Source: a virus. Taken from it: a stretch of 64,000 nucleotides of DNA. The stretch covers positions 32,001-96,000 of IMG/VR virus record IMGVR_UViG_3300029319_000010; one strand, written 5' to 3'. The stretch's first letter is position 1, and each line of letters begins with the position of its first letter. The notes under the pieces are model-generated. The model saw only the letters and a program-made list of their open reading frames with translations. It searched no databases and was not told where the DNA came from. Below are positions 19,568 to 62,904 of the stretch, piece after piece. Made by a program: the position numbers and the translations under genes.

Positions 19568-19577
19568 AGTTTTAAAT

Positions 19578-23264: not shown

Positions 23265-23600
23265 TTAACATTTCCATTTTTTTCTTGCAAGACATGCTCT
23301 TTTCTTAGGAGTTTTCCTGCAATCTATATTAAACTTTTTAATTTGACCTAAATTTCTTGCACAGAAAGATCTTTTACGCGGCCCTCCTCCTGGTTGAGGT
23401 GGTTTTAAATTAGATCCTGTTTTACGGTTAATCATCTTACGGCCTTTAGCTGTAAGTCCCCCTGATTTACTTTTACAACCATTTTTAATTGTACAGCCTG
23501 CCATACCACCTTTTTTGAATGATTCATACATTCCTGGTACTTTTCTGTTTCTATCATCATATATTGGGGCAACATCTGTCCCTGCTAATATTTGACTCAT
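23265..23600 (-). CDS. Small basic Cys-containing protein (DUF6321-like)
   Basis: GGLTAKGR...TGSNLKPP...RKRSFCAR...RKKWKC; start reassigned to ATG 23600; contains FKKGG. Confidence 0.65.
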   Translation of the reverse strand: MSQILAGTDVAPIYDDRNRKVPGMYESFKKGGMAGCTIKNGCKSKSGGLTAKGRKMINRKTGSNLKPPQPGGGPRKRSFCARNLGQIKKFNIDCRKTPKKRACLARKKWKC

Positions 23601-23601
23601 T

Positions 23602-23814
23602 TTATTTCTTTTTATTTTTTTTCCAACTAATTCTTTTTTTACTGGTTTTTTTTCTAGCCGCAGATGTACATTGTGCTTTAGTAGGTCTACAAGCAGGATA
23701 TGGTCTTTTAGAATCAGTTCTAGACTTTCTTCCACAAGGCTTTCCAGTCTTACAATCTATCCAACCTTTACCCTGGTTTCTACTAAACCATTTACGTAAA
23801 CCTTCTTTAGCCAT
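23602..23814 (-). CDS. Small basic protein (GLRKWF...KPCGR...YPACRP family)
   Basis: 70 aa, K/R-rich, recognisable marine-phage small-protein pattern. Confidence 0.65.
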   Translation of the reverse strand: MAKEGLRKWFSRNQGKGWIDCKTGKPCGRKSRTDSKRPYPACRPTKAQCTSAARKKTSKKRISWKKNKKK

Positions 23815-24020
23815 TATTTTTTCTTTTTCTTCTTTTTAGAATTACCCCAATTAGCAGCACCTACCTTTCTACACTTTACTAAAGCTCCTGATCCATAAGC
23901 AGATGGCCAGGTACCTCCATTTCTAGTATATCTTGCTTTTACTTTATAATAGCATGCATCTTTTTTACTACCACCTTTTTTATATTCTTTATCTTCTTTA
24001 ACTTTTTTTAATACTGACAT
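23814..24020 (-). CDS. Small basic protein (DACYxKVK...WPSAYxSGALVKCRK family)
   Basis: Start reassigned to ATG 24020; YKKGG motif; poly-K tail. Confidence 0.65.
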   Translation of the reverse strand: MSVLKKVKEDKEYKKGGSKKDACYYKVKARYTRNGGTWPSAYGSGALVKCRKVGAANWGNSKKKKKKK

Positions 24021-24024
24021 CTTT

Positions 24025-24258
24025 TTATTTTTTACTATGTAATTTCTGTACTTTAAATTTAGCAACAAGTGATGCACCTTTATGTGGTTTAAACTTGCCT
24101 GTATGCTTCATTAATTTATATCCAGATCCACTTTTCATCCAGTGAAAGCCAGCAGGAGCCTTTACAGACTTCATACTAGTAGATCCACCTTTTTTATAAA
24201 CACTCTTAGGCATTTTAGCATTTGACTTTGTAACTTTTCTTTTATTTAAATGTCCCAT
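24025..24258 (-). CDS. Small basic protein (KAPxGFHWM family)
   Basis: 77 aa, K-rich, YKKGG motif. Confidence 0.6.
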   Translation of the reverse strand: MGHLNKRKVTKSNAKMPKSVYKKGGSTSMKSVKAPAGFHWMKSGSGYKLMKHTGKFKPHKGASLVAKFKVQKLHSKK

Positions 24259-24260
24259 AA

Positions 24261-24605
24261 TTAAAACGGTATTGTTATTGTTAAACTTCCTGAACCTTTA
24301 CCTATATTTAAACTACCCCATATACACATTCCATATTTGCAAAACCCCCTTGATGGTGGTTGTGTGCATTGACAATTAGGTAGATTTAATCTAGGATCAC
24401 CAGTTCCACCTACTTGTTCTGTAAATTTAATTTGTGCAGCTAAAAAACTTCTTAATTCAGCTAGTGTTAATTTATCTTCTTTTAATTGTCTAGCTCCTGC
24501 TTCTCCTCTTCTTCTTGCTATAGTATTAAATATAAATTCAGATGTATCTATAAGGGTATCACTATCTACAATGATTTCATGATATGTTTTTACTTGATCA
24601 TTCAT
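24261..24605 (-). CDS. Hypothetical protein with 4-Cys C-terminal segment
   Basis: Start at ATG 24605 just after the SNase stop; VGG followed by CQC...C...C. Confidence 0.5.
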   Translation of the reverse strand: MNDQVKTYHEIIVDSDTLIDTSEFIFNTIARRRGEAGARQLKEDKLTLAELRSFLAAQIKFTEQVGGTGDPRLNLPNCQCTQPPSRGFCKYGMCIWGSLNIGKGSGSLTITIPF

Positions 24606-24606
24606 T

Positions 24607-24987
24607 TTAAAAAGTTTTACGTTTACCACCGTCATACTCCACGGCATAACCTTCTTTTACAAGACAATCATTTACACAAACTTTAGTTATTGTGTCTTTG
24701 CCTGCTATTTTATCTATATGTAATCTACCAAGAACTCTACCATATTTACCCAGCTCTTGTGATTCTAACTCAAAACAATTAGCCGCACCATCTAACATAT
24801 CTGTTAGCCTTTCTTTTGCAGCCAAACCTAATTTCTTTTCAACTTTATTTCTTGTTCTAGATTCTGGTGCATTAATACCAGCAAGTCTAATCCTTTTTTT
24901 AACGTGTACACCAAACCCTAGATCTATCATTGCATCTATTGTATCACCATCAACTACCTTTACACACTTTGCATTATAGTTATACAT
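24607..24987 (-). CDS. Thermonuclease (SNase family)
   Basis: VVDGDTI, IRLAGINAPE, GKYGRVLG, LVKEGYA; start at MYNY (24987). Confidence 0.9.
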   Translation of the reverse strand: MYNYNAKCVKVVDGDTIDAMIDLGFGVHVKKRIRLAGINAPESRTRNKVEKKLGLAAKERLTDMLDGAANCFELESQELGKYGRVLGRLHIDKIAGKDTITKVCVNDCLVKEGYAVEYDGGKRKTF

Positions 24988-25291
24988 TATTAAATATTTT
25001 ATTCTTAATCTTGAGCAACTCTGCACATTTTTCATATTCTTCTAGATCTTCATAATAATATATTGTATCATTATAAACATCTTCATCTGGCTCATCACTT
25101 GGATTATATATCATAATTGCTTTTAAACCATACTTATCATTTACATCTAAAAGATCCTCAAATGAAGCTTTTTTTGTTAAAACCATATACGAGTTTTCAA
25201 ATGCTTGTTCTACAATATAGTTTTCATATTCTATTTTTTCTTCAAGACTCATCTTTTCAGATGATTCTTCATTGAAAGGATCTTTTGACAT
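24980..25291 (-). CDS. Acidic protein with C-terminal UVR-like helix
   Basis: EEYEKCAELL motif. Confidence 0.5.
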   Translation of the reverse strand: MSKDPFNEESSEKMSLEEKIEYENYIVEQAFENSYMVLTKKASFEDLLDVNDKYGLKAIMIYNPSDEPDEDVYNDTIYYYEDLEEYEKCAELLKIKNKIFNNV

Positions 25292-25310
25292 AATTTTAAG
25301 TTTTAGTTTT

Positions 25311-25484
25311 TTAACCTCTTCCTCTACTTCTCTTTAGAGAAGAAGAACCTTTGAATCTTGCAGCTTCCATTCTTGGGTCCATATTATGAGATCCACCATA
25401 CATCATGTATCCCATACCCATAGTTTTAGGCTTCTTTTTGTCACCACCCGCACGGTAGTTCATTCTTTTTCTAGTTCCTGGCAT
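25311..25484 (-). CDS. Small basic protein, 57 aa (MPGTRKRMNYRAGGDKKKPKTMGMGYMMYGGSHNMDPRMEAARFKGSSSLKRSRGRG); absent from the ORF track
   Basis: Manual translation; A-rich leader; YRAGG and MMYGG motifs like its neighbours. Confidence 0.65.
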   Translation of the reverse strand: MPGTRKRMNYRAGGDKKKPKTMGMGYMMYGGSHNMDPRMEAARFKGSSSLKRSRGRG

Positions 25485-25513
25485 AATTTTAAATTTTAAT
25501 AGTTAATAAATAA

Positions 25514-26221
25514 TTACATCATGTTTCTTCTAAACATTCTGTCTCTTTTTCTATCCATACGTCTATCACGTCTTGCTTGCTGTCTCTCTGTTCTAGCATC
25601 TATTCTACCCATCTTTCTAGCTTGTCTGTCCATACGTCTATCCATTCTTCTTTCTTGTCTGTTCTCTCTTCTGTCCGCTCTACGTGCTTGTCTTTCCTCT
25701 CTTCTATCAGCTCTTCTAGCTTGTCTCATCTCTCTCATTAGGTCACGACCTTCTTTTCTAGCCGCTCTACGCATAAATCTGTTTCCTATTCTAGTTAAAG
25801 CTGGATCTGGTCCTCCCATTCCAGGTGCCATATAGTTAAATCCCATAGTTCCTGGTCCTGACATTCCCATCATATTAAATCCTGGTCTTGCATAAGCTGT
25901 TTGCATAGGGTTTACAACAGGCATTATATTTGATCCTGTACCCATGCCTGCTTCAACGGCAGAGCTTAAATCTCCAGTAGTATTATAATTAGCTATTCCT
26001 TCATCAACCATATCTGGATTTAGACCTGCATCTATTAATTCTTCTCTAATTTCTCCCGTATCTTGATACGAAGTCAATTTCTTTCTAGTTCCGCCTCCAT
26101 ACCCCATTCTTCTACGAGCTGTCCCACCAGATTTAAGATAACCCATTTTCTTTCTAACACTAGGGTCTAATGCTCTTAATCCGTTATATTTTTTACCTTT
26201 TGGTATTGCTTTAAGTGCCAT
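25514..26221 (-). CDS. Arg/Met-rich protamine-like protein
   Basis: C-terminal ~90 aa made of RRxDRR/QARR repeats; N-terminal LKSGG and MGYGGG; first gene after the late motif at 26288. Confidence 0.65.
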   Translation of the reverse strand: MALKAIPKGKKYNGLRALDPSVRKKMGYLKSGGTARRRMGYGGGTRKKLTSYQDTGEIREELIDAGLNPDMVDEGIANYNTTGDLSSAVEAGMGTGSNIMPVVNPMQTAYARPGFNMMGMSGPGTMGFNYMAPGMGGPDPALTRIGNRFMRRAARKEGRDLMREMRQARRADRREERQARRADRRENRQERRMDRRMDRQARKMGRIDARTERQQARRDRRMDRKRDRMFRRNMM

Positions 26222-44157: not shown

Positions 44158-45413
44158 CAGATTTAAAACAATTATGGTTAATTGATATTGACCCAAATAA
44201 AATGGACACAGTAAATAATACTTTAGTAATGCAAAGTGGTTGTCTTAAAGTAAAACAATTGGGTCATTATATAGAATCAGCTAAGAATAGTGGTGGGTAT
44301 AGAAAGAGTTCTAATACAAAGATTAAAGAGATAATGAATGATATTGGAACTATTACATCTGATGATCTTAAAAATGCTAATTCATTATATAGATTTCCTA
44401 GACTTAGTTTATCAAGAGATAAAGTAAAGGTACTACAAGAAAAGTTTGATCTTAAGTTGAAAAGAGATTTTCACCAGGCAGACTATGGTATTGTATCTGA
44501 GAAGTATTTTGATGGATTATTTGTTACTAGATGGCTTGCTAAAGCAGATGTTGCAGATGTACTTTCTTGGGCACAAACTTATCAAGATTGTTTTGAAGAG
44601 GATCTTTTTGATGAAATTGTAAATGATTTAAACAAGATACCTGCAGATGCTTATATTGTATTTGAGTCAGAATGGTTTAGTTCATATTACCACGATGGTG
44701 CTAGTAATATTGATAGATATTCTAAGATGGCTGAAAAAGCAAGAAACATAGGTAGAAATACTCAATATCATTATTACATTGAATCATTAGATCAGTGGAA
44801 TGATATACAAGCTAATATGTCTAAACTTGTTTGGGACAGCAATATGAATGATCTTGCTACAGAAGACTCTGAAGTATTAACAGAAGAGATGTATATACAA
44901 CTTAAAACTATGCTTGGTTGGGAAAAGACTGAAAGTGGTTGTGGTTGGCAAGGTACTAGAGACAAAGAGAATATGAATCTAGCTTTGAGCATTATTGCTA
45001 ATTGTAATATTCAAAAGTCTCATACATATATAGCTTTATTATTTTCATTCTTAAGTGACTCTATGAAAGATTCATCTGTTTGGAATACTGTTAACTTTAA
45101 ATCTGTAAGAAAGAAGTTTGATAAGTATATACAAATGAATGGTTGGAACTGGTGTCATAGTTATAATTATTTAATTGAATATTTAATTAAAGATAATGCA
45201 TTAACTGAATACGCTTGGAAAGAAATTGCTCAGAAGATGTATGATGATGTATTGTCATCTCAGATGGGTGTTGATAGTAAAAATCATTTTAGTATTAGTC
45301 CTGATAGTATTCAATTAAAACCGGAACTTAAAGAAAAGGTTATACCAAGTCAAGAAGAACTTCAGTATATGGAAGATCTTGTTGATATGCACACTGAATC
45401 ACATAGATTATGA
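44154..45413 (+). CDS. Hypothetical protein (paralog of 43099)
   Basis: YRFPRLSLSRDKVK...RDFHQADYGIV. Confidence 0.6.
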   Translation: MTDLKQLWLIDIDPNKMDTVNNTLVMQSGCLKVKQLGHYIESAKNSGGYRKSSNTKIKEIMNDIGTITSDDLKNANSLYRFPRLSLSRDKVKVLQEKFDLKLKRDFHQADYGIVSEKYFDGLFVTRWLAKADVADVLSWAQTYQDCFEEDLFDEIVNDLNKIPADAYIVFESEWFSSYYHDGASNIDRYSKMAEKARNIGRNTQYHYYIESLDQWNDIQANMSKLVWDSNMNDLATEDSEVLTEEMYIQLKTMLGWEKTESGCGWQGTRDKENMNLALSIIANCNIQKSHTYIALLFSFLSDSMKDSSVWNTVNFKSVRKKFDKYIQMNGWNWCHSYNYLIEYLIKDNALTEYAWKEIAQKMYDDVLSSQMGVDSKNHFSISPDSIQLKPELKEKVIPSQEELQYMEDLVDMHTESHRL

Positions 45414-46396
45414 TAGATAAAATTAAAGAAGATCTGTTTTACAAGGGAGAGTTTAGCTTTAGCTACTCTTCCTTAAACAGGTTATTGTTTTCACCCAAAC
45501 TCTTTTATAGAGATTATATTCTTAAAGAAAGGGAACTTAAGATGGAAAAACATCTTATTGAAGGTAGGTTAGTACACTTACTTCTTCTTGAGCCAGACCG
45601 GTTTGATGAAGAGTTTAAAGTAGTGCCTACTAGAATTCCTTCAGACTCTCTTCGTAAAGTATTGTATGATATTAGTCAACACACTGATCTTACAGAACTT
45701 AGTATTATAGATGACAAAATAATATTGCAATCACTTAAAAATGTTGGTCTATACCAATCGTTGAAAGATGAATCTAAACGTATTGCTAAAGTACGCACTA
45801 TAGAATGTGAAGATTATTATGGTTTCAAGACAAACTCAAAAGGTTTAGAAGTTATTGATAATGACATGTTAACCAGAGCAACAGAAAGAGTTGATATAAT
45901 AAAGTCTAACAAAGATGTTATGGCTTTACTTATGGAACAAGGTACTGATTGGGATTTAGATCATATTCAAGTATATAATGAGAAGAAATTAAACTGTGAT
46001 TTAAATAATTACAAGTTTGGTTTAAAAGGTATTATAGATAAGTATATAATTGATGATGAATCAAAGACAATAACTATTGTAGATCTTAAAACTACTGCAA
46101 AACCATTAGAAAACTTTGCAGAAACTGTAGATTTTTACAATTATTGGCTTCAAGCAGCTATATATTCATTGCTTGTTATTAAAAATGTTGATGAAAGACA
46201 ACAGGATTATAAAATTATTTTTAAATTTGTAGCTATAGATAAGTATGATCAAGTCTATACATTTCCTGTATCAGAGTCAACACTACTAAGATGGATGAAT
46301 GAATTAAATAGAGCATTAAAACTAGCAAATTATCATTACAGTGAAAGAAGATATGACTTACCATATGAATTTGCAAACGGTAATGTAATACTATGA
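45410..46396 (+). CDS. PD-(D/E)XK exonuclease (RecE/ExoVIII-like)
   Basis: SYSSL, GRLVH, KGIID, IVDLKT, YWLQAAIY. Confidence 0.8.
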   Translation: MIDKIKEDLFYKGEFSFSYSSLNRLLFSPKLFYRDYILKERELKMEKHLIEGRLVHLLLLEPDRFDEEFKVVPTRIPSDSLRKVLYDISQHTDLTELSIIDDKIILQSLKNVGLYQSLKDESKRIAKVRTIECEDYYGFKTNSKGLEVIDNDMLTRATERVDIIKSNKDVMALLMEQGTDWDLDHIQVYNEKKLNCDLNNYKFGLKGIIDKYIIDDESKTITIVDLKTTAKPLENFAETVDFYNYWLQAAIYSLLVIKNVDERQQDYKIIFKFVAIDKYDQVYTFPVSESTLLRWMNELNRALKLANYHYSERRYDLPYEFANGNVIL

Positions 46397-52420: not shown

Positions 52421-52555
52421 TTATCTACCTTGACCTCTATACTTTTTAGTATAATTGCTACCTCCCTTATTGAATGTAGTTCTACTCTTAGCATGTCTAC
52501 CATGAGATTTTCTACTATTAGGCATAAATGTAAATGTATTTTTCTTTGTCGCCAT
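52421..52555 (-). CDS. Small basic protein, 44 aa, ending KKYRGQGR; absent from the ORF track
   Basis: MATKKNTFTFMPNSRKSHGRHAKSRTTFNKGGSNYTKKYRGQGR; TAATG overlap with the upstream gene. Confidence 0.7.
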   Translation of the reverse strand: MATKKNTFTFMPNSRKSHGRHAKSRTTFNKGGSNYTKKYRGQGR

Positions 52556-52935
52556 TATACTCTTGTAAAGAATGCATATACTACATTTGTAACTGCAGTA
52601 TCATACTTTAATTTTGCACCTGTTCCATCTTCAACTACAAAAAATGCAAAATCACCAACTCCTAATTTAGTTAAGTTAGTGCTTCCACCATCATTAGTAA
52701 CAAGTATATTACCAGTTCCAGTACCACCACCATTAGTTCCTGTATTATGAACAAATAAATATGTATCACCTTGACTTGTAGGAATAATTGATTGATTTAA
52801 AGCAGCATATGTCGTTATACCAGCTGAAGTTACTGTGCTTTCTTGTACAGTAATAACAGGGTTTAAGGTTATAGACACAGGATCACTTTGACCAGTTATA
52901 GTACCTGTAAGATTAAATAAAGTTTGTAAATTCAT
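52555..52935 (-). CDS. Small beta-rich putative virion protein (paralog 1 of 3)
   Basis: TYLFVHNTG...KLGVGDFAF...VVYAFF. Confidence 0.6.
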   Translation of the reverse strand: MNLQTLFNLTGTITGQSDPVSITLNPVITVQESTVTSAGITTYAALNQSIIPTSQGDTYLFVHNTGTNGGGTGTGNILVTNDGGSTNLTKLGVGDFAFFVVEDGTGAKLKYDTAVTNVVYAFFTRV

Positions 52936-52958: not shown

Positions 52959-53363
52959 TTAATGTCTTTTTAGATAAGCATAAACATATGTAGTAACTGA
53001 GTTATCATATACAGCCTTTAAACCTGCTTGTGCTATCAAAGGTATAAACATTGCATCACCAACATTTAAATGTGCTATGTTTGTTCCAGCACCGTTTGTA
53101 AGTATAACTTTACCTCCAGTACTAAGATCTCCGTTTGCACCAACATTTCTAACATACACATACTGTGTAGAACCTCCAGCTGCAGGTGCAGCAGATGTTC
53201 CTAGTATTTCAAAAGGTGTACCATTTACGGTATTTCTTGATGCAGATGTTAGAGAAGGATTTTCAACGTCTAATTCAAAGTCAGTAAAATTAATACCTAC
53301 TGAATCACTTTGACCTGTTAAACTTCCGTTTAAACTTAAACTAAATTTTACTTTATCAGCCAT
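52959..53363 (-). CDS. Small beta-rich putative virion protein (paralog 2 of 3)
   Basis: QYVYVRNVG...HLNVGDAMF...YVYAYL; shares TGQSD with paralog 1. Confidence 0.6.
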   Translation of the reverse strand: MADKVKFSLSLNGSLTGQSDSVGINFTDFELDVENPSLTSASRNTVNGTPFEILGTSAAPAAGGSTQYVYVRNVGANGDLSTGGKVILTNGAGTNIAHLNVGDAMFIPLIAQAGLKAVYDNSVTTYVYAYLKRH

Positions 53364-53381: not shown

Positions 53382-53783
53382 TTATTGTTTCTTCTTATTA
53401 AATTTTTCAACAGATCTACCACCAAAATAGGCACCAATCACTGTTATTAATACTAACTGTAGAAGATCAGTCCACTTTTCTTCTACGGTAAATGTTAATG
53501 CACCAGCATCAATAAAGATCAATAACATAGTACATACTATTAAAAATATAAGAACCATAGGTCTTACATTTTTACTTAACCAACTATCAGAATTCATATC
53601 TGCCGTCCAACGGTCAGTTATATTTTTTTCCATTTGAGCTTCATGATTCATGATTAGCTCTTTTAGTTTTCTTTTAGCGTCTAGTTTTTCTTCATCTGTT
53701 GTTACTAAGTTATCTATCACACCACCAACTGATTCTACCAAGTTGCTTCCGGCACCTGAGAAAATCTTTTTTAGTATACTCAT
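53382..53783 (-). CDS. Holin, 3TM (GTA-type) family
   Basis: IDNLVTTDEEK...RWTADMNSDSWLSKNVRP...GAYFGGRSVEK. Confidence 0.8.
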   Translation of the reverse strand: MSILKKIFSGAGSNLVESVGGVIDNLVTTDEEKLDAKRKLKELIMNHEAQMEKNITDRWTADMNSDSWLSKNVRPMVLIFLIVCTMLLIFIDAGALTFTVEEKWTDLLQLVLITVIGAYFGGRSVEKFNKKKQ

Positions 53784-53800: not shown

Positions 53801-53977
53801 TTACAATACCCCGTTAGGACCAATAGAACCAACAGAACCTCCATATTTAGCAAATATGTCACTGGTACCAGTTCCATAACCACCTACCCTCGACCCTCTT
53901 TTCATTGCTTTTCTTTTTTCTCTTCTATCTTGTCTTCTATTTCTTCTATCTTGTCTTTTTTCTTTATTTCCAAACAT
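53801..53977 (-). CDS. Small basic protein, 58 aa, ending GPNGVL; absent from the ORF track
   Basis: MFGNKEKRQDRRNRRQDRREKRKAMKRGSRVGGYGTGTSDIFAKYGGSVGSIGPNGVL. Confidence 0.7.
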   Translation of the reverse strand: MFGNKEKRQDRRNRRQDRREKRKAMKRGSRVGGYGTGTSDIFAKYGGSVGSIGPNGVL

Positions 53978-53996
53978 AATATTTATTTTTTAATAT

Positions 53997-54131
53997 TTAT
54001 AATACCCCATTAGGTCCCACAGACTTCATTAATGGTTTGTGATATTCACCACCACACATCATCATGTGAGATCCCCCACACTTATAAGTCTTTTTCTTTT
54101 TCTTATCTTTCTTTTTCTTTTTATACATCAT
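53997..54131 (-). CDS. Small basic protein, 44 aa, ending GPNGVL; absent from the ORF track
   Basis: MMYKKKKKDKKKKKTYKCGGSHMMMCGGEYHKPLMKSVGPNGVL; ATGA overlap with the upstream gene. Confidence 0.7.
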   Translation of the reverse strand: MMYKKKKKDKKKKKTYKCGGSHMMMCGGEYHKPLMKSVGPNGVL

Positions 54132-54361
54132 AATAAACTATTTGGTCCCATGTTCATACCATATGGACAACCGCAACCCTGCACCTGTCCACCTTCAGCT
54201 TTTTTAAAGCTTTTTAATGTTTTAGCTAAGTTACATCTACGTTTTGCTTTAGTAGATGGAGGATTCTTGCAATATTCTGAGATGCTCTTTCCTTCAGCTT
54301 TAGCAGCTGCAGTCAAAGCACCTGGTTTTTTTATTGCTTTTTTTATCCAATTCTTAGCCAT
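54128..54361 (-). CDS. Small basic protein (NWIKKAIKKPGA family) ending GPNSLL
   Basis: 77 aa; KRRCNLAKTL; KAEGG. Confidence 0.7.
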   Translation of the reverse strand: MAKNWIKKAIKKPGALTAAAKAEGKSISEYCKNPPSTKAKRRCNLAKTLKSFKKAEGGQVQGCGCPYGMNMGPNSLL

Positions 54362-54364
54362 ATT

Positions 54365-54670
54365 TTAATCTTCACAAACATTTGAGTGGGAGCCATCACA
54401 GTATCCATCAGGATCTGAAGTGGTACCACACACACATTCTTTCTTATCTTTAACAAAGAATCTATCATATGCACCTTCTTTAACTGTCTTTACAAAAAGT
54501 TCAAATTGATCTTTTGTAAACTCAGTATAGCCTTCATCTTCTCCACCAACAATTACTTTGTCAGATTCGGTTGAGATGTCAATTGCTGGACAACTCTTAC
54601 AGCTAGCACAAAAAGTCATTTGTGATCTGTTTGCACTAATTTTTACATTTTTTAATCCTTCTAATTCCAT
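54365..54670 (-). CDS. CDGSH iron-sulfur motif protein
   Basis: C-terminal CVCGTTSDPDGYCDGSH; N-terminal CxxCxxC and DUF397-like region. Confidence 0.7.
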   Translation of the reverse strand: MELEGLKNVKISANRSQMTFCASCKSCPAIDISTESDKVIVGGEDEGYTEFTKDQFELFVKTVKEGAYDRFFVKDKKECVCGTTSDPDGYCDGSHSNVCED

Positions 54671-54674
54671 TGGT

Positions 54675-55043
54675 TTATACTTTTTTAAATTTAGCGTAAT
54701 TAACTACACATGCAGCAGTGTCAGAAATTAATTCTAATCCTTCTCCACCGTCACAACATAAAAACATGAAGCTACCTGGAAAGAGTTTAGCATATGTATT
54801 ATTTGCCACGTCTTGAACAGTTACAAAATTGGCAAGATCTGTATTTTGAATGAATATATAAGTATCAGCAGCAGTAGTTGGAATAATCTCTGTAGCAGAT
54901 GTTGGTATTGACATAGATTTTGATTCTACGTCAGTATTATCAAAATTTACAGTGTCTAAAACTGTGCTATTTAAACTAAATATACCACTAACTGTGTCAG
55001 CAGTATTAAGGTTTAATGAGAGATTAAGTGCTTGTGTTGCCAT
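54675..55043 (-). CDS. Small beta-rich putative virion protein (paralog 3 of 3)
   Basis: TYIFIQNTD...KLFPGSFMF...VNYAKF. Confidence 0.6.
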   Translation of the reverse strand: MATQALNLSLNLNTADTVSGIFSLNSTVLDTVNFDNTDVESKSMSIPTSATEIIPTTAADTYIFIQNTDLANFVTVQDVANNTYAKLFPGSFMFLCCDGGEGLELISDTAACVVNYAKFKKV

Positions 55044-55225
55044 TATATTTCAAATCCAAAGTTAAATATCATAAATCTAAATCTTTTACAATTTGGCTGT
55101 TTGTTTTCACAAAACCAGCATGGGCAAAAGTATAGTTCTAATAATGTTAATTTACCAAGTCTAAGGTTTAATTCATAAACCTCTTTCTTATTTCCTGATT
55201 TCCAGGAATTAATCCAATTTATCAT
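55043..55225 (-). CDS. Hypothetical small protein
   Basis: 60-aa ORF downstream of the late motif at 55251-55261. Confidence 0.55.
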   Translation of the reverse strand: MINWINSWKSGNKKEVYELNLRLGKLTLLELYFCPCWFCENKQPNCKRFRFMIFNFGFEI

Positions 55226-55250
55226 AATAAAATAATTTATGTTATATTAT

Positions 55251-55261
55251 TAATATACAAA
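55251..55261 (-). promoter_or_regulatory. Putative late-promoter motif TTTGTATATTA
   Basis: Exact copy about 26 nt upstream of ATG 55225. Confidence 0.65.
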
Positions 55262-55275
55262 AAAATAAGTGAAAA

Positions 55276-56349
55276 TTAAAGTATGATATAGTTTATTCCA
55301 AACTTGAAATCATGCCAGTCACGGTTCCAGTATTTGTTATATTTTCCTTCAATAAAGATACCTAGGTTCTTATTGATCTTATAACCAAATATTAAACCAC
55401 CTGAATAATCTATCCAATTGCCACCATTAAAATTATGATATGAGTACTCACCCCCTGTATCCAAATGCACCGGTAGTAGGTTCGCCCAAGAATGAAACCA
55501 TATTGTTTTAGTGTAGTGATAGTAGTCTAAACCAACTACTAGAGAATGACACCACTGAACAGGTAATGCATCCTTTTTTGATTTCACATAATCATTAAGA
55601 ACTTGGGGGACCACTACCTCTTCCCATACTTCACTACTTGTAGCCACGACTGCTCCACTAGGGTCTAAGTAGCTTATTCCTGTTGGGTCAAACCCAATTG
55701 TGTAGCCTTCCTCTAAAGCAAGGTTTGTGTAGTGTATGTTTCCATTAGATAGTACCCACTCAGCTAAAGGGTCATAACCGTAAGGTTCTGATATTCTTTG
55801 TACAGCTCCTGCAGTAACTGAAAGTTTTCTACCTATCTTTTGTCTATATCGTTGTGACGCTTCCATGTATTCTACATCAGCAAAGCCGTCTTGTAAGTAC
55901 TCTATCTTAACCACCCATCTATCTGCTAAGTATCGTAAAAAGTGATGTTGGTCTACATAAGAGTTACCTTGTTGTCTTTTATAATCTGCCTCAAACAAAA
56001 ACTCAAATCCTCTAGTTCGTCCAATAGTAGCGGCATCAGAGTAAGAAGTTTCTGTACCATCTTTGAATGTATTAGCTTTATTCTCGTATCCAAATCTTTG
56101 TATCTTTCTTACACCTACAGTAAAAGCATAGTCAAATGGAGTTTCTATTACATCGGTTTGAAGTCCATCTAATATAGAATATGTATTCTGATCTGAAATA
56201 GAGGTACCACCATTTACTGCAGCGTAGAATGTAGAGAACTTAAAAGTTTTCTTAAGTTCTGTTTTAAACTTGCTATCCTGAGCACAACACTTTTTAGGTG
56301 CTACACAAGACAATAATAGTAATAATATGGTTAGTAGTATTTTTTTCAC
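55276..56349 (-). CDS. Putative outer-membrane beta-barrel protein with signal peptide
   Basis: MKK + hydrophobic signal; amphipathic aromatic-rich strands; C-terminal FKFGINYIIL beta-signal-like strand. Confidence 0.65.
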   Translation of the reverse strand: MKKILLTILLLLLSCVAPKKCCAQDSKFKTELKKTFKFSTFYAAVNGGTSISDQNTYSILDGLQTDVIETPFDYAFTVGVRKIQRFGYENKANTFKDGTETSYSDAATIGRTRGFEFLFEADYKRQQGNSYVDQHHFLRYLADRWVVKIEYLQDGFADVEYMEASQRYRQKIGRKLSVTAGAVQRISEPYGYDPLAEWVLSNGNIHYTNLALEEGYTIGFDPTGISYLDPSGAVVATSSEVWEEVVVPQVLNDYVKSKKDALPVQWCHSLVVGLDYYHYTKTIWFHSWANLLPVHLDTGGEYSYHNFNGGNWIDYSGGLIFGYKINKNLGIFIEGKYNKYWNRDWHDFKFGINYIIL

Positions 56350-59300
56350 AACTTAATTATTTTCTTGGTTATTCTTATTTTATCATATGTAATAATCAAA
56401 TTATACATTCCATCGGGATAATCTGATAAATCTATTCTTTTAATATTATCTGTTTGTATAATCTCTCCTACCATATTATATAGTTCTACATCAACATCTA
56501 GTCTTGTTTCTATAGTAAATGTATTTGCTGTAGGATTGGGGTATACAATTATATCACTACCTGATAGCTCATCTAAGTTAACTGGCCATCCTTCTTCACA
56601 ATAATTATACATAGATTGACAGGTCTCATCCCATACCTCAGTACAACAATAGTTATCTATATCTATAACCCAAGCATAACAAGGATCATTTAACCAATAA
56701 GGTTCTCCAGGTCCACCATAGCAACCAGCATCATAAAGACAAGTGGTATTATCTGGTAAGTTAACTAACGGATCATAGTTATATGCATTAGGATCAGCAC
56801 ATCCTTCTATTATAACTACACAACTACCATCATCAAAACAAGCATCTTCATCATAGTTTAGTGCAGTACTATCTGTACAACCTCCAACATAACAACATGA
56901 ATTATCTAAAGTATTTGCTAACGGATCAAAGTTAAGAGCCATTGTGTCTGTACAACCATATACAAATTCTATACACGTACCATTATCTGTATTTGCTAAT
57001 GGGTCATAGTTAAATGCAGTAGAATCCATGCAACCATATACATAAGGTATACAGTTACCGCTATCAGTATTTGCAGTAGAATCATAATTAAACATGGTAG
57101 AATCCATACATCCTATAATAACACCTTCACAGCTTCCATCATCTGTATTGGCATCTGCATTATAGTTAAAAGCCTCTGGATTGGTGCAACCTAGTATAGG
57201 GTATATACATCCATTATTAGTATTTGCTAACTCATTATAATTTAACGCAGTTGAATCTGTACAACCAATCACAACATCAATACATGAGCCGTTGTTTGTA
57301 TTTGCTGTGGCATTAAAATTAAATGCACTTGGATCTGTGCATCCATATATAGCATATATACACCCTGAATTAGTATTAGCGGTAATTTGATAATTTAAAG
57401 CTGTATCATCAGTGCATCCTATTACTACTGGTTGACATGAATCATCATCAATATTAGCATTTACATTAAAGTTAAATGCTGTTGGGTCAGTACATCCTAG
57501 AACAGGATATACACAACCTGAGTTAGTATTAGCTAGTTGATCATAGTTTAGTGCTGTATCATCTGTACACCCTATAACAACATCAACACAACTATTGTCA
57601 GTAGTATTAGCTTGTGGATTATAGTTAAATGAATCAGGATTTGTACAACCATAAACAAATGAAATACATCCTACATTTGTGTTAGCAGTTTCATCATAAT
57701 TATATGCTTCAGGATCCGTACATCCATATGCAAACTCTATACATGATCCATCATCAGTGTTTGCATTAACATTAAAATTAAACATTGTAGGATCCATACA
57801 ACCATATACAAATGGCTCACATGGATTATTTTCATCTGCTGTATTAGCTTCTGCATTATAATTAAATGCTGTTTCATCTAAACAACCGTATATAAATGGT
57901 TCACATAAATTATTATTTGTGTTAACATCTACACCATTTATTCCTGTTAATGGATTTCCTACTCCATCATTATCATAATCATTATATGTATAAGAGTTTG
58001 GATTTAAACAACCATATACAAAAGGATAACATGAGCCATCATCGGTATTAGCTAGCTCATTATAGTTAAATTGATTTGACTGTGTACAACCTTCAACAAC
58101 TGGTTCACAACTATCATCATCTACATTTGCATCTGGATAGTAATTAAATGCTTCATCATCTGTACAGCCATACACTATTTCTATGCAAGAGTCATTATCT
58201 GTATTAGCGTCTTCATCATAGTTAAACGCAGCAGAGTCTGTACAACCATTAATAACAGGCTGACATGATCCTGGTTCTAGAGTATTTGCTTCTTGATCAT
58301 AATTAAATGCTAATGGGTCTGTACAACCTAATATAGTTGGTATACAAGGATCTGTTTCATCTTCAACAGCTACTTGATTAACTGTTGCTAGTTCATTATA
58401 GTTATATGCAGTTTCATCTATACAGCCGAATATAGCATATACTTCACATGTTCCATCATCAAAATCTGCTTCTATTGCATTTTGTTCTATATAATTATAA
58501 TATTCAATATAAGCTGCATCAGTACAACCAGGGTTGTAATAACAGTCATTACTGCTTGTATTTGCTATTGGATCAAAGTTAACTGCTTCTAAATCTAAAC
58601 AACCATAAATTTTAGGAATACAGTTATTACCACACAGAGCTTGACCTTGATATAGAAAGTTGTATTGATTATAAGAAAGTATTGGATTTGTATAAGGGTT
58701 AGTTCCACCTTCTAATATAATGTCTCCTATAGGGTTAATTATTTCAAAGCTGCATTGTTCTGTTGTTTGTTGAGATTGACCAAAAGAATAAAAATAAGCT
58801 TTAACCATTTCACTGGTATTAAAATTAATTTCAGTTTCAAAAACTGTTTGATCACTTTGTAATGTAAAAGGCCCCCACCACTGATCACCTTGTGTAACTA
58901 CTAAAAATGAACCTGCCCAACCATTATCAGCCCAATCCGTCAATCTTAATGTATTTGTACAATTAGGGTTTGATAGTTGTGTATTTGCATCAGGGTTAAA
59001 ATTAAAAGCATCAGGGTTTATACAGCCAAATATTCTTTCTGTTTCACATGATCCGTCATCTTCATTAGCATAAGGGTTAAACTCTAAATACTCATTGTTT
59101 GTACATCCTTGTACAGTCTCTGGTGCACATGGTGTTACTTGACCAACATCAATTATAAGCTCTCCAAAATCACCTATACCTTCTGATATTGTATCACCAC
59201 ATTCTGTATATACCGCCCAAGTACCATCTATACCACCCCATTGAGCTCCACCAAGACCATCTCCATATGAGTCTTGTAACCAAAACATTATGTTAGTATT

Positions 59301-60512
59301 GTCATCAATGCAAGTTTGATATTCTACTGTAGTACCTACTGGCACACCACAATACGTTGTGTTATCATTTACTTCTGCTAAAGGTGTTCCATCACCATAC
59401 TGATCATATATTATCCAACTAGTTTCACAGCCATACTGATCCACCATTATTTCAACTGTAACTAAAGTTTTACCTGCTGTGCATGTTATATCTCCTCCAT
59501 TACATGAACCATCGTCTGTAGTTGCTGCAGGGTTATAACTAGCTGCTTCTGGGTCTGTACAACCTGGTATGTTAATACAAGATCCATCATCAATACCTGC
59601 TTCTTCATTATAGTTTAATGCATTTGGGTCTGTACATCCATAAATAAAAATACAAGGATCTACCTGCCATGTTTCTCCTACTACAGCATTTACATTTACA
59701 CCTGGAGTATTTGTATTAGGGTTTCCATCTGCTTCTGCTTGTGTTGATACTACATAGATTAATGTTGTGGGTGAATTACAACCTCCACCATCAAAAGCTA
59801 CAGCATCTATAAACCATTGTTGTCCATTATCACCAACATATATTCTTGCACCAATTTGTAGAATATCTTGATATTGTAAATAAAATTCGGGATCAACTCC
59901 AAAGTGAGTATTAGTAAAGGATACCAAGTTACATGTTGAACCTGGTGTTATAATGCCTGTTGGTATATCTGCTGCAAGTGGATTATAATTAAATGCAAAC
60001 TCATTTATACATCCATAAATATATGTACAACTACCATCATTAATTAAGGCATCTTCGTTAAAGTTTTCTGCTAATTCATCTGTACAACCTTGTAAAGGAG
60101 GAGCACAAGGTGCTATAGTTAATGTATCTACTAAAGATATTGGTCCGCTAGGTTCTGTTGTTAGTACTGAATCTTCATAAAAAGCACCTTCTACATACAT
60201 TAAACTATCTTGACAAGCATTACTTATTGAAAACCATCCATTATTACCACCCCAAAAAGATCCAGCTAAACCATCACCATAAGCATCATTTAATGAAATA
60301 ATATATTCACCTGCTGGTATACTTATTATAGTATCATGTAAAAATTCTGGCAATAAAAATGGTTCATTTACAGCTATTGCAGCACCGCTAATATCATAAA
60401 GTTCCCATGATGTTTCACCAGGATATTGGTCTGTTTGTAACTGTATATGTATCCAAGATTCTTGAGTAAATACTAGTATAGGAACTAGTAATAAGAATAT
60501 TAGTTTTTTCAT
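56346..60512 (-). CDS. GCTD-repeat protein with Sec signal and T9SS type-A C-terminal sorting domain
   Basis: Signal MKKLIFLLLVPILVFT|Q; about 29 GC[TM][DN]xxAxNYxxxANTDDGSC units; C-terminal IIVYPNP...LYNMVG...IDLSDYPDGMY...TKKIIKL. Confidence 0.85.
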   Translation of the reverse strand: MKKLIFLLLVPILVFTQESWIHIQLQTDQYPGETSWELYDISGAAIAVNEPFLLPEFLHDTIISIPAGEYIISLNDAYGDGLAGSFWGGNNGWFSISNACQDSLMYVEGAFYEDSVLTTEPSGPISLVDTLTIAPCAPPLQGCTDELAENFNEDALINDGSCTYIYGCINEFAFNYNPLAADIPTGIITPGSTCNLVSFTNTHFGVDPEFYLQYQDILQIGARIYVGDNGQQWFIDAVAFDGGGCNSPTTLIYVVSTQAEADGNPNTNTPGVNVNAVVGETWQVDPCIFIYGCTDPNALNYNEEAGIDDGSCINIPGCTDPEAASYNPAATTDDGSCNGGDITCTAGKTLVTVEIMVDQYGCETSWIIYDQYGDGTPLAEVNDNTTYCGVPVGTTVEYQTCIDDNTNIMFWLQDSYGDGLGGAQWGGIDGTWAVYTECGDTISEGIGDFGELIIDVGQVTPCAPETVQGCTNNEYLEFNPYANEDDGSCETERIFGCINPDAFNFNPDANTQLSNPNCTNTLRLTDWADNGWAGSFLVVTQGDQWWGPFTLQSDQTVFETEINFNTSEMVKAYFYSFGQSQQTTEQCSFEIINPIGDIILEGGTNPYTNPILSYNQYNFLYQGQALCGNNCIPKIYGCLDLEAVNFDPIANTSSNDCYYNPGCTDAAYIEYYNYIEQNAIEADFDDGTCEVYAIFGCIDETAYNYNELATVNQVAVEDETDPCIPTILGCTDPLAFNYDQEANTLEPGSCQPVINGCTDSAAFNYDEDANTDNDSCIEIVYGCTDDEAFNYYPDANVDDDSCEPVVEGCTQSNQFNYNELANTDDGSCYPFVYGCLNPNSYTYNDYDNDGVGNPLTGINGVDVNTNNNLCEPFIYGCLDETAFNYNAEANTADENNPCEPFVYGCMDPTMFNFNVNANTDDGSCIEFAYGCTDPEAYNYDETANTNVGCISFVYGCTNPDSFNYNPQANTTDNSCVDVVIGCTDDTALNYDQLANTNSGCVYPVLGCTDPTAFNFNVNANIDDDSCQPVVIGCTDDTALNYQITANTNSGCIYAIYGCTDPSAFNFNATANTNNGSCIDVVIGCTDSTALNYNELANTNNGCIYPILGCTNPEAFNYNADANTDDGSCEGVIIGCMDSTMFNYDSTANTDSGNCIPYVYGCMDSTAFNYDPLANTDNGTCIEFVYGCTDTMALNFDPLANTLDNSCCYVGGCTDSTALNYDEDACFDDGSCVVIIEGCADPNAYNYDPLVNLPDNTTCLYDAGCYGGPGEPYWLNDPCYAWVIDIDNYCCTEVWDETCQSMYNYCEEGWPVNLDELSGSDIIVYPNPTANTFTIETRLDVDVELYNMVGEIIQTDNIKRIDLSDYPDGMYNLIITYDKIRITKKIIKL
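56735..58610 (-). repeat. Tandem array of ~25-28-aa Cys-containing (GCTD) protein repeats
   Basis: About 23 consecutive units in the translation, plus three isolated pairs nearer the N-terminus. Confidence 0.85.
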
Positions 60513-60515
60513 ATT

Positions 60516-60839
60516 TTAAAATTTATTAGCAAGTATTTCGTCAATATATGCTTGCACTTCTTTTGCATCTGCTTTCATAGTAAATGATATATCTGCTTGA
60601 TATCTTTTTACTTCTTCACCATCATCAAATATTATAATTGTAGGAACTACTGCTATATTATGTTTTTCTTGTTGTTTTGGTTTGTCTGCTATATCTACAT
60701 ATGCTATATCACAATCAACTAAATCATTACACCATTCTACATCATTTGTAGAGTTCCATCCTGCATTATATTGAACAACTTCTACCTGTCCATAGGCAAT
60801 AGAAGACATCAAACAAAATATAAAGAATATATTTTTCAT
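60516..60839 (-). CDS. Exported thioredoxin-fold protein lacking canonical CXXC
   Basis: Signal ending AYG|Q; YNAGWN in place of FxAxWC; VDI...NIAVVPTIIIFDDGEEVKR. Confidence 0.7.
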   Translation of the reverse strand: MKNIFFIFCLMSSIAYGQVEVVQYNAGWNSTNDVEWCNDLVDCDIAYVDIADKPKQQEKHNIAVVPTIIIFDDGEEVKRYQADISFTMKADAKEVQAYIDEILANKF

Positions 60840-61117
60840 TTTAATCTATCTATTTTATCTTCTATACGTTTTAAATCTTCTTTTATTTCCTCAACATCAT
60901 CTTGAGTATTTTGAATTGTTAAACGTATATTTTTATCTTTCATATCAAACTCCATTCTTGTTACATCTGGATTTGGTGGTACAGGTAGCTCTTTAGCCTC
61001 AGCAATATCTGCCTGTAAAACAAACCACATACTTACTAAAGTAGTAATTAAAAAACCTATTCCACCTAGTGTCTTTAGGCTTATTTCAAATTTGGAATCT
61101 TCTGATATTTCTTTCAT
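60836..61117 (-). CDS. Single-TM protein with C-terminal coiled coil
   Basis: Hydrophobic GIGFLITTLVSMWFVL; heptad VEEIKEDLKRIEDKIDRL. Confidence 0.6.
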   Translation of the reverse strand: MKEISEDSKFEISLKTLGGIGFLITTLVSMWFVLQADIAEAKELPVPPNPDVTRMEFDMKDKNIRLTIQNTQDDVEEIKEDLKRIEDKIDRLK

Positions 61118-61521
61118 TTTGTACCTCCTTTTCTCATATAACCCTGGCCTGAAAATATAATCATCTTGTCTTTGTTTGCACCTCCTCTTTTCTTTGGTGA
61201 TTTCTTAGCACCAGGATTTGACGTTTTTAATTTTCTTACATTATTTGTCATTGAAGTCAACTTATTCTGATTTTCTAGAAGTTTATTTTGACTCTCAATT
61301 AGTTGGTTATTGAGTTGAAGTTGTTTAATAATCTCTTTTTGATTATTCATTATAGATTGTTGATTAAGCATTGCTTGTTCATCAGGGTTAGGAACTTTAT
61401 TAGGATCCATTTGAGGAACATCTACAAAATCAGATACAGCGGGTCTACCAATCCTAGATACCTTTCTAGGACCGGCATGATTATTAGGACCTCCCGCTCT
61501 ATATTGTCTAATTCTACGCAT
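61114..61521 (-). CDS. Basic N/Q-rich protein with xxGG motifs
   Basis: Start reassigned to ATG 61521; YRAGG, KKRGG, MRKGG. Confidence 0.6.
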   Translation of the reverse strand: MRRIRQYRAGGPNNHAGPRKVSRIGRPAVSDFVDVPQMDPNKVPNPDEQAMLNQQSIMNNQKEIIKQLQLNNQLIESQNKLLENQNKLTSMTNNVRKLKTSNPGAKKSPKKRGGANKDKMIIFSGQGYMRKGGTK

Positions 61522-61525
61522 ATTA

Positions 61526-61909
61526 CTATGAAGTTGTATCCCAGTCAATTACAATTGATCCACAAACTACTCCAAGATTAGTTGCATTAGGAGCAATTTC
61601 AAGAAATCTTGCATTTGCTGGATTAGTAATTTCAGTTGTACCTGCTCTAGCTAAAAATTCTGTAATTGCTCTTTGCAATTTTAATGCTTCACCAGTTGTT
61701 GTTATTGATGCTTTACAATCTTTTCTAGTATGTCCTAACCAAGTACCACTATGACCAGCATCTAGAAAAAAGATTTCAAGAGTATTTGCATCTGCTATTC
61801 TCATATTAACATTATTTCCTGATCCAACTGGATAGGATATAATATCTTCTGTGTCATCAGCATATGTCATAATCCATTTTGGTAATGCTGCTAAATTTAA
61901 TTCTGCCAT
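61526..61909 (-). CDS. Hypothetical late protein (paralog of 61936)
   Basis: MAELNxAxLPKW, LDAGH, RAGTTEITN. Confidence 0.65.
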   Translation of the reverse strand: MAELNLAALPKWIMTYADDTEDIISYPVGSGNNVNMRIADANTLEIFFLDAGHSGTWLGHTRKDCKASITTTGEALKLQRAITEFLARAGTTEITNPANARFLEIAPNATNLGVVCGSIVIDWDTTS

Positions 61910-61935
61910 GTTTAAAAAATTTATTAAGTTAATTA

Positions 61936-62361
61936 TTATGCTATTATATCTTCTACTACCTCTAAGTCAGTAACAGTTGCTCCTAAAAAAGTATTTACAT
62001 CACTTAAAACATCTCCATCAAGATATATCATTCTGTTATTATCTGTATTAGTAATTTCTGTAGATCCTGCTCTAGCTACCCACCTTGTAAAATTTCTTAC
62101 TATATTAAGTCTAGTAGCATCGTCATCAGCATGTGTAAATACAATTGCCATATCACGTCTTGCACCAACAACACCTTCACTATCATGACCTGCATCCAAT
62201 ATACACACTAATGTTTTAGTTGGTGCACCTCCTGTTCCAGTATTACAAGATTTAAAAAATACTCTTGCACCCAAACCAATAGGTACTGATACACTTTTAT
62301 TTTCTCCTGTGTCTTTAGCCATAACCCACTTGGGTAGTATTGCTTTGTTTAATTCTGCCAT
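61936..62361 (-). CDS. Hypothetical late protein (paralog of 61526)
   Basis: MAELNxAxLPKW, LDAGH, RAGSTEITN. Confidence 0.65.
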   Translation of the reverse strand: MAELNKAILPKWVMAKDTGENKSVSVPIGLGARVFFKSCNTGTGGAPTKTLVCILDAGHDSEGVVGARRDMAIVFTHADDDATRLNIVRNFTRWVARAGSTEITNTDNNRMIYLDGDVLSDVNTFLGATVTDLEVVEDIIA

Positions 62362-62403
62362 ATTTAAAATATTTTAATTGTTTATATTCTTGTTTGTTAT
62401 ATT

Positions 62404-62904
62404 TTATAAAACCCTATTAGGTCCTGCTCCTCCTCTTGCTCCTTTTGCTCTGTTATAAGCTACAAGTTCAGTTGCTAAATTATTAGATCTTGTTGTATTT
62501 CTACTTTGTGCATCTGTTCTTGCACGTAATGCTACATTATAACGGCTTAGATCTGCTGGGTCTAATGTATAATAAGCCAGTCTATCAGCAGTAACCGCAC
62601 CTCTAGTGCCCGGACTTACACGTCTTGCACTTCTATATATAGCAGGATTAGGTGCATCTGGAACAGTCTCTGGTGCAAATTTACTTTGTCTTGTACTAGG
62701 TTTTATTAAAACATCTCTATTAATAGGATTTCTTGTACCTTTTGTTTGAAATTTTGCTGAAAACTTACTTGTAGGAAGTGGGGTTTCTGGTTTAACCAAT
62801 AACTGTGCAGATAAATTATTACTTGGCGTAATACTGTTTAATGCATCGTTTGTTCTTTGACCATGAGATTGTTTCTCTTGGTCTGCTCTTTTTCTTGAAG
62901 CCAT
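62404..62904 (-). CDS. Basic low-complexity protein ending GPNRVL
   Basis: 166 aa, R/A/P-rich; C-terminus ARGGAGPNRVL. Confidence 0.65.
   Translation of the reverse strand: MASRKRADQEKQSHGQRTNDALNSITPSNNLSAQLLVKPETPLPTSKFSAKFQTKGTRNPINRDVLIKPSTRQSKFAPETVPDAPNPAIYRSARRVSPGTRGAVTADRLAYYTLDPADLSRYNVALRARTDAQSRNTTRSNNLATELVAYNRAKGARGGAGPNRVL

Follow-up and report, generated by a model that had tools for sequence, protein, structure and literature searches.

Why should four small proteins with unrelated bodies all end alike? The question is raised by a 64,000-nucleotide stretch of viral DNA (hereafter the window; positions 32001-96000 of the 114,213-bp IMG/VR virus record IMGVR_UViG_3300029319_000010), in which four minus-strand open reading frames (ORFs) lying between 53801 and 62904 close, directly before the stop codon, on SIGPNGVL, SVGPNGVL, NMGPNSLL and GAGPNRVL, all of them reading GPNxxL-stop. 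A first-pass annotation, made from the letters alone, had noticed these endings and taken the shared tail (or tag) for a peptide-level, strictly C-terminal and portable signal on unrelated basic late proteins. The computational analysis described here strongly supports that core idea, and the tail looks like an undescribed docking or address label in a phage.

The four proteins have unrelated bodies, and in each the tail is preceded by a GG, as the annotation had also claimed. The first is a 58-residue Arg/Lys-rich ORF (53801..53977, minus strand; tail codons and stop 53801-53833), which ends in ...AKYGGSVGSIGPNGVL and whose stop lies 17 nt ahead of the start of a holin gene. It has no homologue among the related loci that we fetched and forms a singleton cluster, so the argument for its translation comes only from its tail and its operon position. 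Next to it lies a 44-residue poly-Lys ORF (53997..54131, minus; tail 53997-54029), which carries a CGGSxMxCGGEYH module before its ending ...SVGPNGVL, has homologues in loci L002, L054 and L058, and in other genomes has its module fused to the family of the third protein. That third protein, of 77 residues (54128..54361, minus; tail 54128-54160), consists of a helical N-terminal WIKKAIKKPG...RCNLAKTLK domain (phrog_20603) followed by a GGQVQGCGCPYGMNM module and the ending GPNSLL. The fourth is a 166-residue low-complexity basic protein (62404..62904, minus; tail 62404-62436) that ends in ...RGGAGPNRVL; its homologues end in GATGANGVL (L002, 187 residues) and GSGPNGVL (P0001, 62% identical), and since homologues at 58-62% identity retain the tail, the tail is kept as the body drifts. 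The annotation had conceded that it would fail if the small ORFs were untranslated. Ratios of nonsynonymous to synonymous substitution (dN/dS) are 0.05-0.13 for the 77-residue family, 0.06-0.25 for the 44-residue family and 0.42 for the 166-residue protein, and the range of 0.05-0.25 across the first two speaks for translation. Judged from sequence, the small ORFs are real genes, the 58-residue ORF being a probable one by its tail and operon position.

Chance is excluded by the placement of the motif and by simulation. In all six frames, GPN tripeptides number 8 in the window and 13 in the whole genome, and 4 of these 13 stand exactly 6 residues before a stop; no further GPN is so placed. When 702 stop-to-stop frames of at least 40 residues were grouped by the residues shared at positions -6, -5, -4 and -1, GPN..L formed the largest group, whereas 40 first-order Markov genomes gave groups of at most 2-3, built from common residues.

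The same ending recurs in relatives, where the annotation had suggested looking for GPN..L at protein ends and where C-terminal enrichment was indeed found. The six frames of 80 related loci, fetched with the holin as query, contain 127 GPN tripeptides, of which 83 precede a stop by six residues; at ORF positions -6 to -4 no other tripeptide comes near GPN in frequency (74 cases). Searching with a pattern that includes the variants that occur, G-[PRSA]-[NHQ]-x-[IVL]-L, yielded 93 distinct tagged proteins in related IMG/VR contigs, 35 to 408 residues long (median 96) with a median pI of 10.1; a noisy full-length alignment used as the query of a homologue search returned only one homologue. The 93 tails have the consensus ending K-K-[YFH]-G-G-A-V-G-P-N-G-[IV]-L (an example of the last 14 residues is KKFGGAVGPNGIL), with a ten-residue core of about GG-A-V-G-P-N-G-[IV]-L. 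The final three residues are G (70 tails), N, K or R, then I or V, then L, and the GG at -10/-9 is retained in about 70 of the 93. With the last 12 residues removed, the bodies fall into 28 clusters at a blastp threshold of 1e-4, in agreement with the annotation's view that they are unrelated. No Pfam domain and no informative PHROG domain was found in the tagged proteins, and none is common to the bodies; the 28 clusters and the lack of a shared domain rule out common descent of the tagged proteins. Up to six tagged genes occur in one locus.

Selection acts on the peptide and not on the DNA. The annotation's observation that codons differ between copies extends to 47 canonical tails from relatives. 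At their invariant Gly and Asn positions every synonymous codon is used (four and two, respectively), and at the invariant Pro position three or four are; all three stop codons follow the tails, and the sequence past the stop is not conserved. This freedom at synonymous sites, in the stop codon and downstream bears directly on the idea that the tail has no function of its own but results from chance, from recent duplication or from a conserved element in the DNA (terminator, promoter or recombination site). Tagged genes often stand in tandem at close spacing, and recombination between their tail-coding ends could spread them; such an origin is nevertheless exceedingly improbable, given unrelated bodies, a tail retained at 58-62% body identity, reversed-pattern controls with zero matches in every genome and simulated genomes that fail to give the grouping. 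At the level of sequence, codon variation, the three stops, the reversed-pattern controls and the simulated genomes rule out both chance and a DNA-level element.

The tail is also confined to the C terminus. A position-specific scoring matrix of the last ten residues, applied with a threshold above 12 bits to all proteins of six complete genomes, gave 12 matches, all 12 C-terminal and none internal. When 1.84 billion representative proteins were searched with a profile built from the last 32 residues, eight matched at E <=0.001, seven of them proteins of 44-112 residues in which the match reaches the last residue. AlphaFold2 places helices at residues 4-55 of the 77-residue family and assigns residues 53-77, the tail module among them, a predicted local distance difference test score (pLDDT) below 50; the module is predicted to be disordered. 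It is, moreover, modular. Members of one N-terminal family may have or lack the tail, the homologue in L025 ending in ...RCTLWRTFNKYRPK and that in L043 in ...RCTLWRTFNKYRNKKMGGAVGPHGIL; the linker modules ahead of the tail vary (GGQVQGCGCPYGM-x-M, CGGS-x-M-x-CGGEYH-x-P, or plain GGAV); and the tagless sister genome G001 has the same small-protein families, ending in poly-Lys. No tail-like C termini were found on structural proteins. Two other endings in the genome were noted. A PD-(D/E)XK nuclease (window 45410-46396, plus strand) ends in ...YEFANGNVIL (in relatives, ...KGNVVL), which is superficially tail-like, yet falls under the tail-profile threshold, and a 950-residue cargo-type family (genome 11798-14650; orthologues in G001-G005) has its own ending, ...AAGA[DE]-I-x-I-L, in tagged and tagless genomes alike. 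Neither the AAGA[DE]I-x-IL nor the NGNVIL ending matches the tail profile.

The source genome is that of an uncultured marine crAss-like phage, and the host is probably a member of the Bacteroidota. The part of the window from 10.7 to 19.3 kb encodes a portal (phrog_6547, 6e-96), a large terminase and a homologue of major head proteins; the major capsid protein (gene at 10749-12383) matches a PHROG major head protein family. The genome encodes giant proteins of 950 to 3663 residues, a layout that fits a crAss-like phage, and its portal has its GenBank relatives in crAss-like phages that infect Bacteroides, Flavobacterium and Cellulophaga. The nearest GenBank portal, that of Leptolyngbya phage Lbo-JY46, is only 35% identical, and no nucleotide match to the genome was found among GenBank phages. 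Judged by eye, a 1388-residue neighbour has both the N-terminal signal and the C-terminal ending of substrates of type IX secretion, a feature that suggests a host among the Bacteroidota.

Within this group the tag is narrowly distributed. The strict DNA pattern GG-x-x-G-P-N-G-[IV]-L-stop was found in 31 stretches among 2.9 million IMG/VR contigs, most of them in contigs already fetched by the holin query. In 185,579 bacterial and archaeal genomes it gave 19 scattered single matches, about the number estimated for chance, with none in Flavobacteriia; this pattern rules out a host sorting system that uses the same tag. The capsid family has at least 600 IMG/VR matches at about 80% identity, yet of 20 further contigs only 3 have tags. 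In a tree built from the capsid, portal, terminase and polymerase of 12 near-complete genomes, the six tagged ones form a single clade (support 100/100), tagless G001 is its sister and five tagless genomes make up the other clade; neither the sister nor the outgroup genomes have the tag. In Lbo-JY46, the closest cultured phage, the tail is not enriched (4 matches vs 7 in the control), and we found no mention of GPNGIL, GPNGVL or GGAVGPN in the phage literature. From this clade-limited distribution of sequences, the tag seems to have had a single origin and to be the property of one lineage of uncultured phages.

The tagged genes occupy late-operon positions, mostly near the holin. The holin, of GTA_holin_3TM type (53382..53783, minus; phrog_3427 at 1e-32, PF11351), lies directly downstream of the three clustered tagged ORFs. 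Across the six complete tagged genomes, 13 of the 18 tagged genes share the strand of the holin and lie no more than 3 kb from it, and the gap from the tail stop to the holin start is often only 1-18 nt; several of the remaining 5 sit in a second block of very basic small proteins, which adjoins an endolysin-like gene (phrog_33083), a small transmembrane protein and a staphylococcal-nuclease homologue. A transmembrane-like segment is present in only 2 of the 93 tagged proteins, and signal peptides in none. Their N termini are unusually cationic and amphipathic (typically MPGKLLKKLFKK or MPANMKKAG), with a median net charge of +5 in the first 20 residues and a median helical hydrophobic moment of 0.51 vs 0.38, the moment exceeding 0.6 in 28% vs 4%.

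Taken as sequence evidence, these properties support a portable, exposed docking peptide that requires a free C terminus and would be read by something specific to the clade. We propose that the tail, [KR][KR]-[YFH]-G-G-[AS]-V-G-P-N-G-[IV]-L-COOH, is such a short linear peptide, flexible and exposed, which must form the very C terminus and may have been grafted onto many unrelated small cationic late proteins. One clade-specific partner would read it, most likely a phage-encoded one, since the motif occurs only at chance level in bacterial genomes. The tagged proteins could then be DNA-binding or counter-ion proteins that are loaded into the procapsid, packaged and perhaps injected with the DNA, and the conserved GG may be the site at which the tail is clipped after delivery. 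A single reader, its place in the capsid or in the assembly machinery, and the cleavage of the tail are three points that we infer. On the analogies set out below, a docking peptide read by a phage late protein, which would most likely load cationic proteins into the procapsid, is the explanation that we tentatively prefer. The annotation's own suggestion, docking in the prohead or on a protease with possible cleavage at GG, is plausible by analogy with the T4 internal proteins and from the tag's restriction to one lineage.

The closest analogies are to the T4 capsid-targeting sequence and to encapsulin cargo-loading peptides; the tail may act like either and is a member of neither. The internal proteins of T-even phages are diverse and have only the capsid-targeting sequence in common, by which those of T4 are sent to the prohead core; it is through their lysines that they touch the packaged DNA (PMC3012670). 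As on IPI, IPII and IPIII of T4, a short terminal peptide is the sole common element of diverse, basic, fast-changing small proteins encoded in variable loci; here it is shared by the 28 unrelated body clusters, with as many as 6 tagged genes in one locus. The T4 peptide, in contrast, is N-terminal, has another sequence and is removed by the gp21 prohead protease (L/I-x-E), whereas the tail described here is strictly C-terminal, its role in packaging is a proposal, and no prohead protease was detected among the proteins scanned. Encapsulin cargo-loading peptides are likewise short, disordered, usually C-terminal and carried by unrelated cargo, as is the tail, with its pLDDT below 50 in the 77-residue protein and its exclusively C-terminal position. 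They dock on the interior of an HK97-fold shell. The major capsid protein of crAss001 has an HK97-like fold (PMC10172136). Unlike an encapsulin cargo gene, which adjoins the shell gene, the tagged genes (53801-62904) lie about 40 kb from the capsid gene (10749-12383), and GGAVGPNG[IV]L looks different from the Gly/Ser/Leu-rich encapsulin motif. A more specific version of the proposal is that the tail docks in an inner-face pocket of the HK97-fold crAss-type capsid, or of an auxiliary lining protein, as a phage counterpart of encapsulin loading, that it lets the clade pack an exchangeable set of small cationic proteins, either condensers of DNA or anti-defence factors for injection, and that an unrecognised maturation protease clips it at GG; in this detail we consider it unlikely.

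Other terminal signals resemble the tail less. It has in common with PDZ ligands, the PTS1 signal -SKL and the ssrA ending -LAA a free C terminus that ends in hydrophobic residues on a flexible segment; its position -3, mostly Gly, fits neither class I nor class II PDZ ligands, whose last three residues read [ST]-x-hydrophobic or hydrophobic-x-hydrophobic, its conserved G-P-N-G core lies further upstream, and no PDZ or TPR reader was found among the phage proteins scanned. Sortase, exosortase and rhombosortase signals (LPXTG, PEP-CTERM, GlyGly-CTERM), in which a transmembrane helix and a basic tail come after the motif and the protein starts with a signal peptide, do not describe a motif that forms the very end of proteins with a transmembrane-like segment in 2 of 93 cases. 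Nor do some ten disordered residues, on proteins as short as 35-44 residues, correspond to the C-terminal domain of type IX secretion, a fold of ~70-100 residues on proteins with a signal peptide. A double-glycine leader of the kind cut by peptidase C39, an N-terminal element that ends in GG and has a C39/ABC transporter encoded nearby, does not fit a C-terminal GG with only 8 residues after it, and no C39 match was found in the scanned subset of proteins.

Loading into the procapsid is favoured by analogy with the crAss-type virion, which holds megadaltons of protein cargo (PMC10172136). Several observations weigh against it. The known cargo proteins of crAss001 are large and lack such a tail. 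The tagged genes lie by the holin or in the endolysin-adjacent basic block, about 40 kb from the head genes, and their amphipathic cationic N termini fit membrane action equally well. A tagless sister phage has an 80% identical major capsid protein; the capsid, portal and terminase of G001 are about as similar to those of the present genome (G000) as are those of tagged G002 and G003, so that no capsid change accompanies gain of the tag. No prohead protease was detected among the proteins scanned, the gene content of 12 genomes did not identify a reader, and we found no virion proteomics for the clade. Because of the position by the holin, the distance of ~40 kb from the head genes and the tagless sister with its 80% identical major capsid protein, the serious main rival is a role in lysis: the tagged proteins would be cationic amphipathic effectors of the disruptin type that act on the envelope after the holin has fired, and the tail would dock them on a lysis component (holin, endolysin or envelope target) or keep them inactive until then. 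The model for such an effector is gp28 of phiKT, a 56-residue cationic amphipathic lysis peptide which, like the tagged proteins, is small, lacks a signal peptide and is encoded with lysis genes (10.1101/515445). The charge of +5, the raised hydrophobic moment, the 13 of 18 genes within 3 kb of the holin with gaps often of 1-18 nt, and the further tagged genes beside the endolysin-like gene and the small transmembrane protein all fit this role. The disruptin, however, is the product of a single gene and has no conserved terminal tag, whereas up to six tagged genes share a locus here, and their bodies, many of more than 150 residues, are diverse, unrelated and fast-changing, unlike lysis genes. 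A membrane disruptor has no need of a precise terminal G-P-N-G turn; close holin homologues (71-90% identical) occur in many tagless phages; a spanin-like transmembrane/coiled-coil protein is already encoded at 60836-61117; and the 166-residue tagged protein lies 8.6 kb from the holin. We regard a lysis-linked role as somewhat unlikely, serious rival though it is.

There are two further readings. The tail could be a proteolysis signal, either a C-terminal degron or a propeptide, for a protease of the phage or its host (ClpXP-type, tail-specific, or a Gly-Gly-specific maturation enzyme), which would set the level, timing or activation of toxic cationic proteins. An [IV]-L terminus on a disordered segment would suit such a signal, as would the GG at -10/-9 in about 70 of 93 tails. 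Internal GG is also about 1.8 times as frequent as expected in tagged bodies, and [YFMH]-x(1-2)-GG occurs in the first 45 residues of small basic proteins at 16% vs 2% (odds ratio 8.5, p = 1e-9), counts that take in homologues and are not independent. A related motif, GG-x-L-P-K-[AYF]-Q, recurs in giant cargo-type proteins, its N-terminal cases coming mostly from one orthologous family. Cleavage after Gly-Gly has viral precedents: the adenovirus protease cuts (M/I/L)XGG-X and is activated by a short C-terminal pVI peptide, and pS273R of African swine fever virus cuts GG-X. The substrates there are basic DNA-associated virion proteins, in which, as in the tagged proteins, GG comes after a hydrophobic or aromatic residue. 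The proteases of these viruses of eukaryotes belong to clan CE, of which no member was detected in the phage, and GG cleavage is a conjecture. With G-P-N conserved far more sharply than known degrons need, motif matches in host genomes only at chance level and no protease domain among the proteins scanned, we judge a proteolysis signal improbable. The other reading is that the tail hijacks a host factor by binding a conserved cytoplasmic machine (the chaperonin apical domain, the sliding clamp, RNA polymerase or the ribosome) and so recruits many phage proteins to it. Clamps and chaperonins are usually bound through C-terminal hydrophobic peptides on disordered linkers, which is the form of the tail, and the phage encodes a 97-residue GroES-like co-chaperonin (window 19298-19591, minus; mobile loop ...TSSGIYIP...), which implies that it uses host GroEL. 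The loop SSGIYIP is unlike the tail, and mimicry of the co-chaperonin mobile loop is ruled out on that ground; the tail is also without the Q and L positions found in clamp-binding motifs. The tagged genes are late, small and up to six per locus, and sister and outgroup phages with presumably similar hosts manage without the tag. We find this very unlikely.

Beside these readings stands an observation on the giant cargo-type proteins encoded upstream of the window (genome 11798-21282; orthologues in G002-G009), in which GG-[SE]-L-P-K-[AYF]-Q-x-x-G occurs at N termini and between modules; in this genome the motif reads L-[KP]-T-Y-Q-D-Q-G-E-V. By its sequence, which shares a Y-G-G-x-hydrophobic-P start with the tail, it could be a processing or docking site.

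A reader was sought among genes whose presence follows that of the tag. When the gene content of the five other tagged genomes was compared with that of six tagless ones, only one gene roughly tracked the tag, that of a 101-residue protein with a CDGSH-like Cys/His C terminus (CVCG...CDGSH), which lies directly upstream of the tagged array (54365..54670, minus). It is present at 64-83% identity in all five other tagged genomes and absent from G001, G009, G010, G011 and G013, and it is also present in tagless G014. It has no Pfam or PHROG match and belongs to no recognisable family; relatives split it into a protein of 73-76 residues and a Cys-rich ORF of ~40 residues. Its sequence distribution makes it a weak candidate for the partner of the tag, a lead and no more than that, since all the tagged genomes belong to a single clade and descent confounds the comparison.

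The surroundings of the tagged genes include further candidates for lysis and several uncharacterised families, all on the minus strand. The endolysin-like protein (phrog_33083; window 21988-22605) and a 71-residue transmembrane protein (23046-23261), whose gene lies directly upstream of the holin in other phages, are lysis candidates, and a 93-residue protein with an N-terminal transmembrane segment and a coiled coil (60836-61117) is a candidate inner-membrane spanin by its resemblance. Three paralogues of a ~125-residue all-beta family (52555-52935, 52959-53363 and 54675-55043) flank the holin and the tagged array; AlphaFold2 predicts a jellyroll-type fold (pLDDT 93), for which PDB matches are weak (TM-score about 0.5; Bacillus Ena spore-appendage subunits and cupins), and among viruses the family is matched best by uncharacterised proteins of 'Virus NIOZ-UU157'. 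Another pair of paralogues, of 127 and 141 residues (61526-61909 and 61936-62361), lies directly downstream of the 166-residue tagged gene in an order kept in L002; the pair has no known domains and, by profile comparison, is unrelated to the ~125-residue family. A very basic 44-residue ORF (52421-52555) ends in ...KKYRGQGR, and a Y-R-G-Q-G-[RK] ending is conserved beside the holin in many relatives, with QGR ending 32 ORFs. Very basic small proteins (DUF6321 and others) form another cluster at 23265-26221, which contains the module SAY-x-SGALVKCRKVGAANWG, whose homologues occur in 366 records, all annotated as hypothetical and almost all from T4-like cyanophages, with a few from roseophages and marine-virus records; modules of this cluster also lie inside PHROGs profiles of 450-928 positions. 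Among the relatives, IMGVR_UViG_3300030098_004828 (245,646 bp; loci L016 and L029) has two holin loci about 120 kb apart, and since the two holins differ (89% and 93% identity to that of the window), the contig may be a chimera or concatenation of two ~120-kb relatives.

Terminal address peptides fill the shells of T4 and of encapsulins and are useful handles for packaging foreign proteins into capsids. The tail provides a natural example, ten residues long and strictly C-terminal, with what appears to be one origin in a definable clade and a spread over at least 28 unrelated protein families, and the contrast between tagged phages and their tagless sister makes the question of its reader experimentally tractable. 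If the reader is a lysis component, the tag would show how phages of Bacteroidota organise the outer membrane's disruption; if it is part of the capsid or assembly machinery, the tag would be the first cargo-targeting rule in crAss-like phages and a ready-made loading tag.

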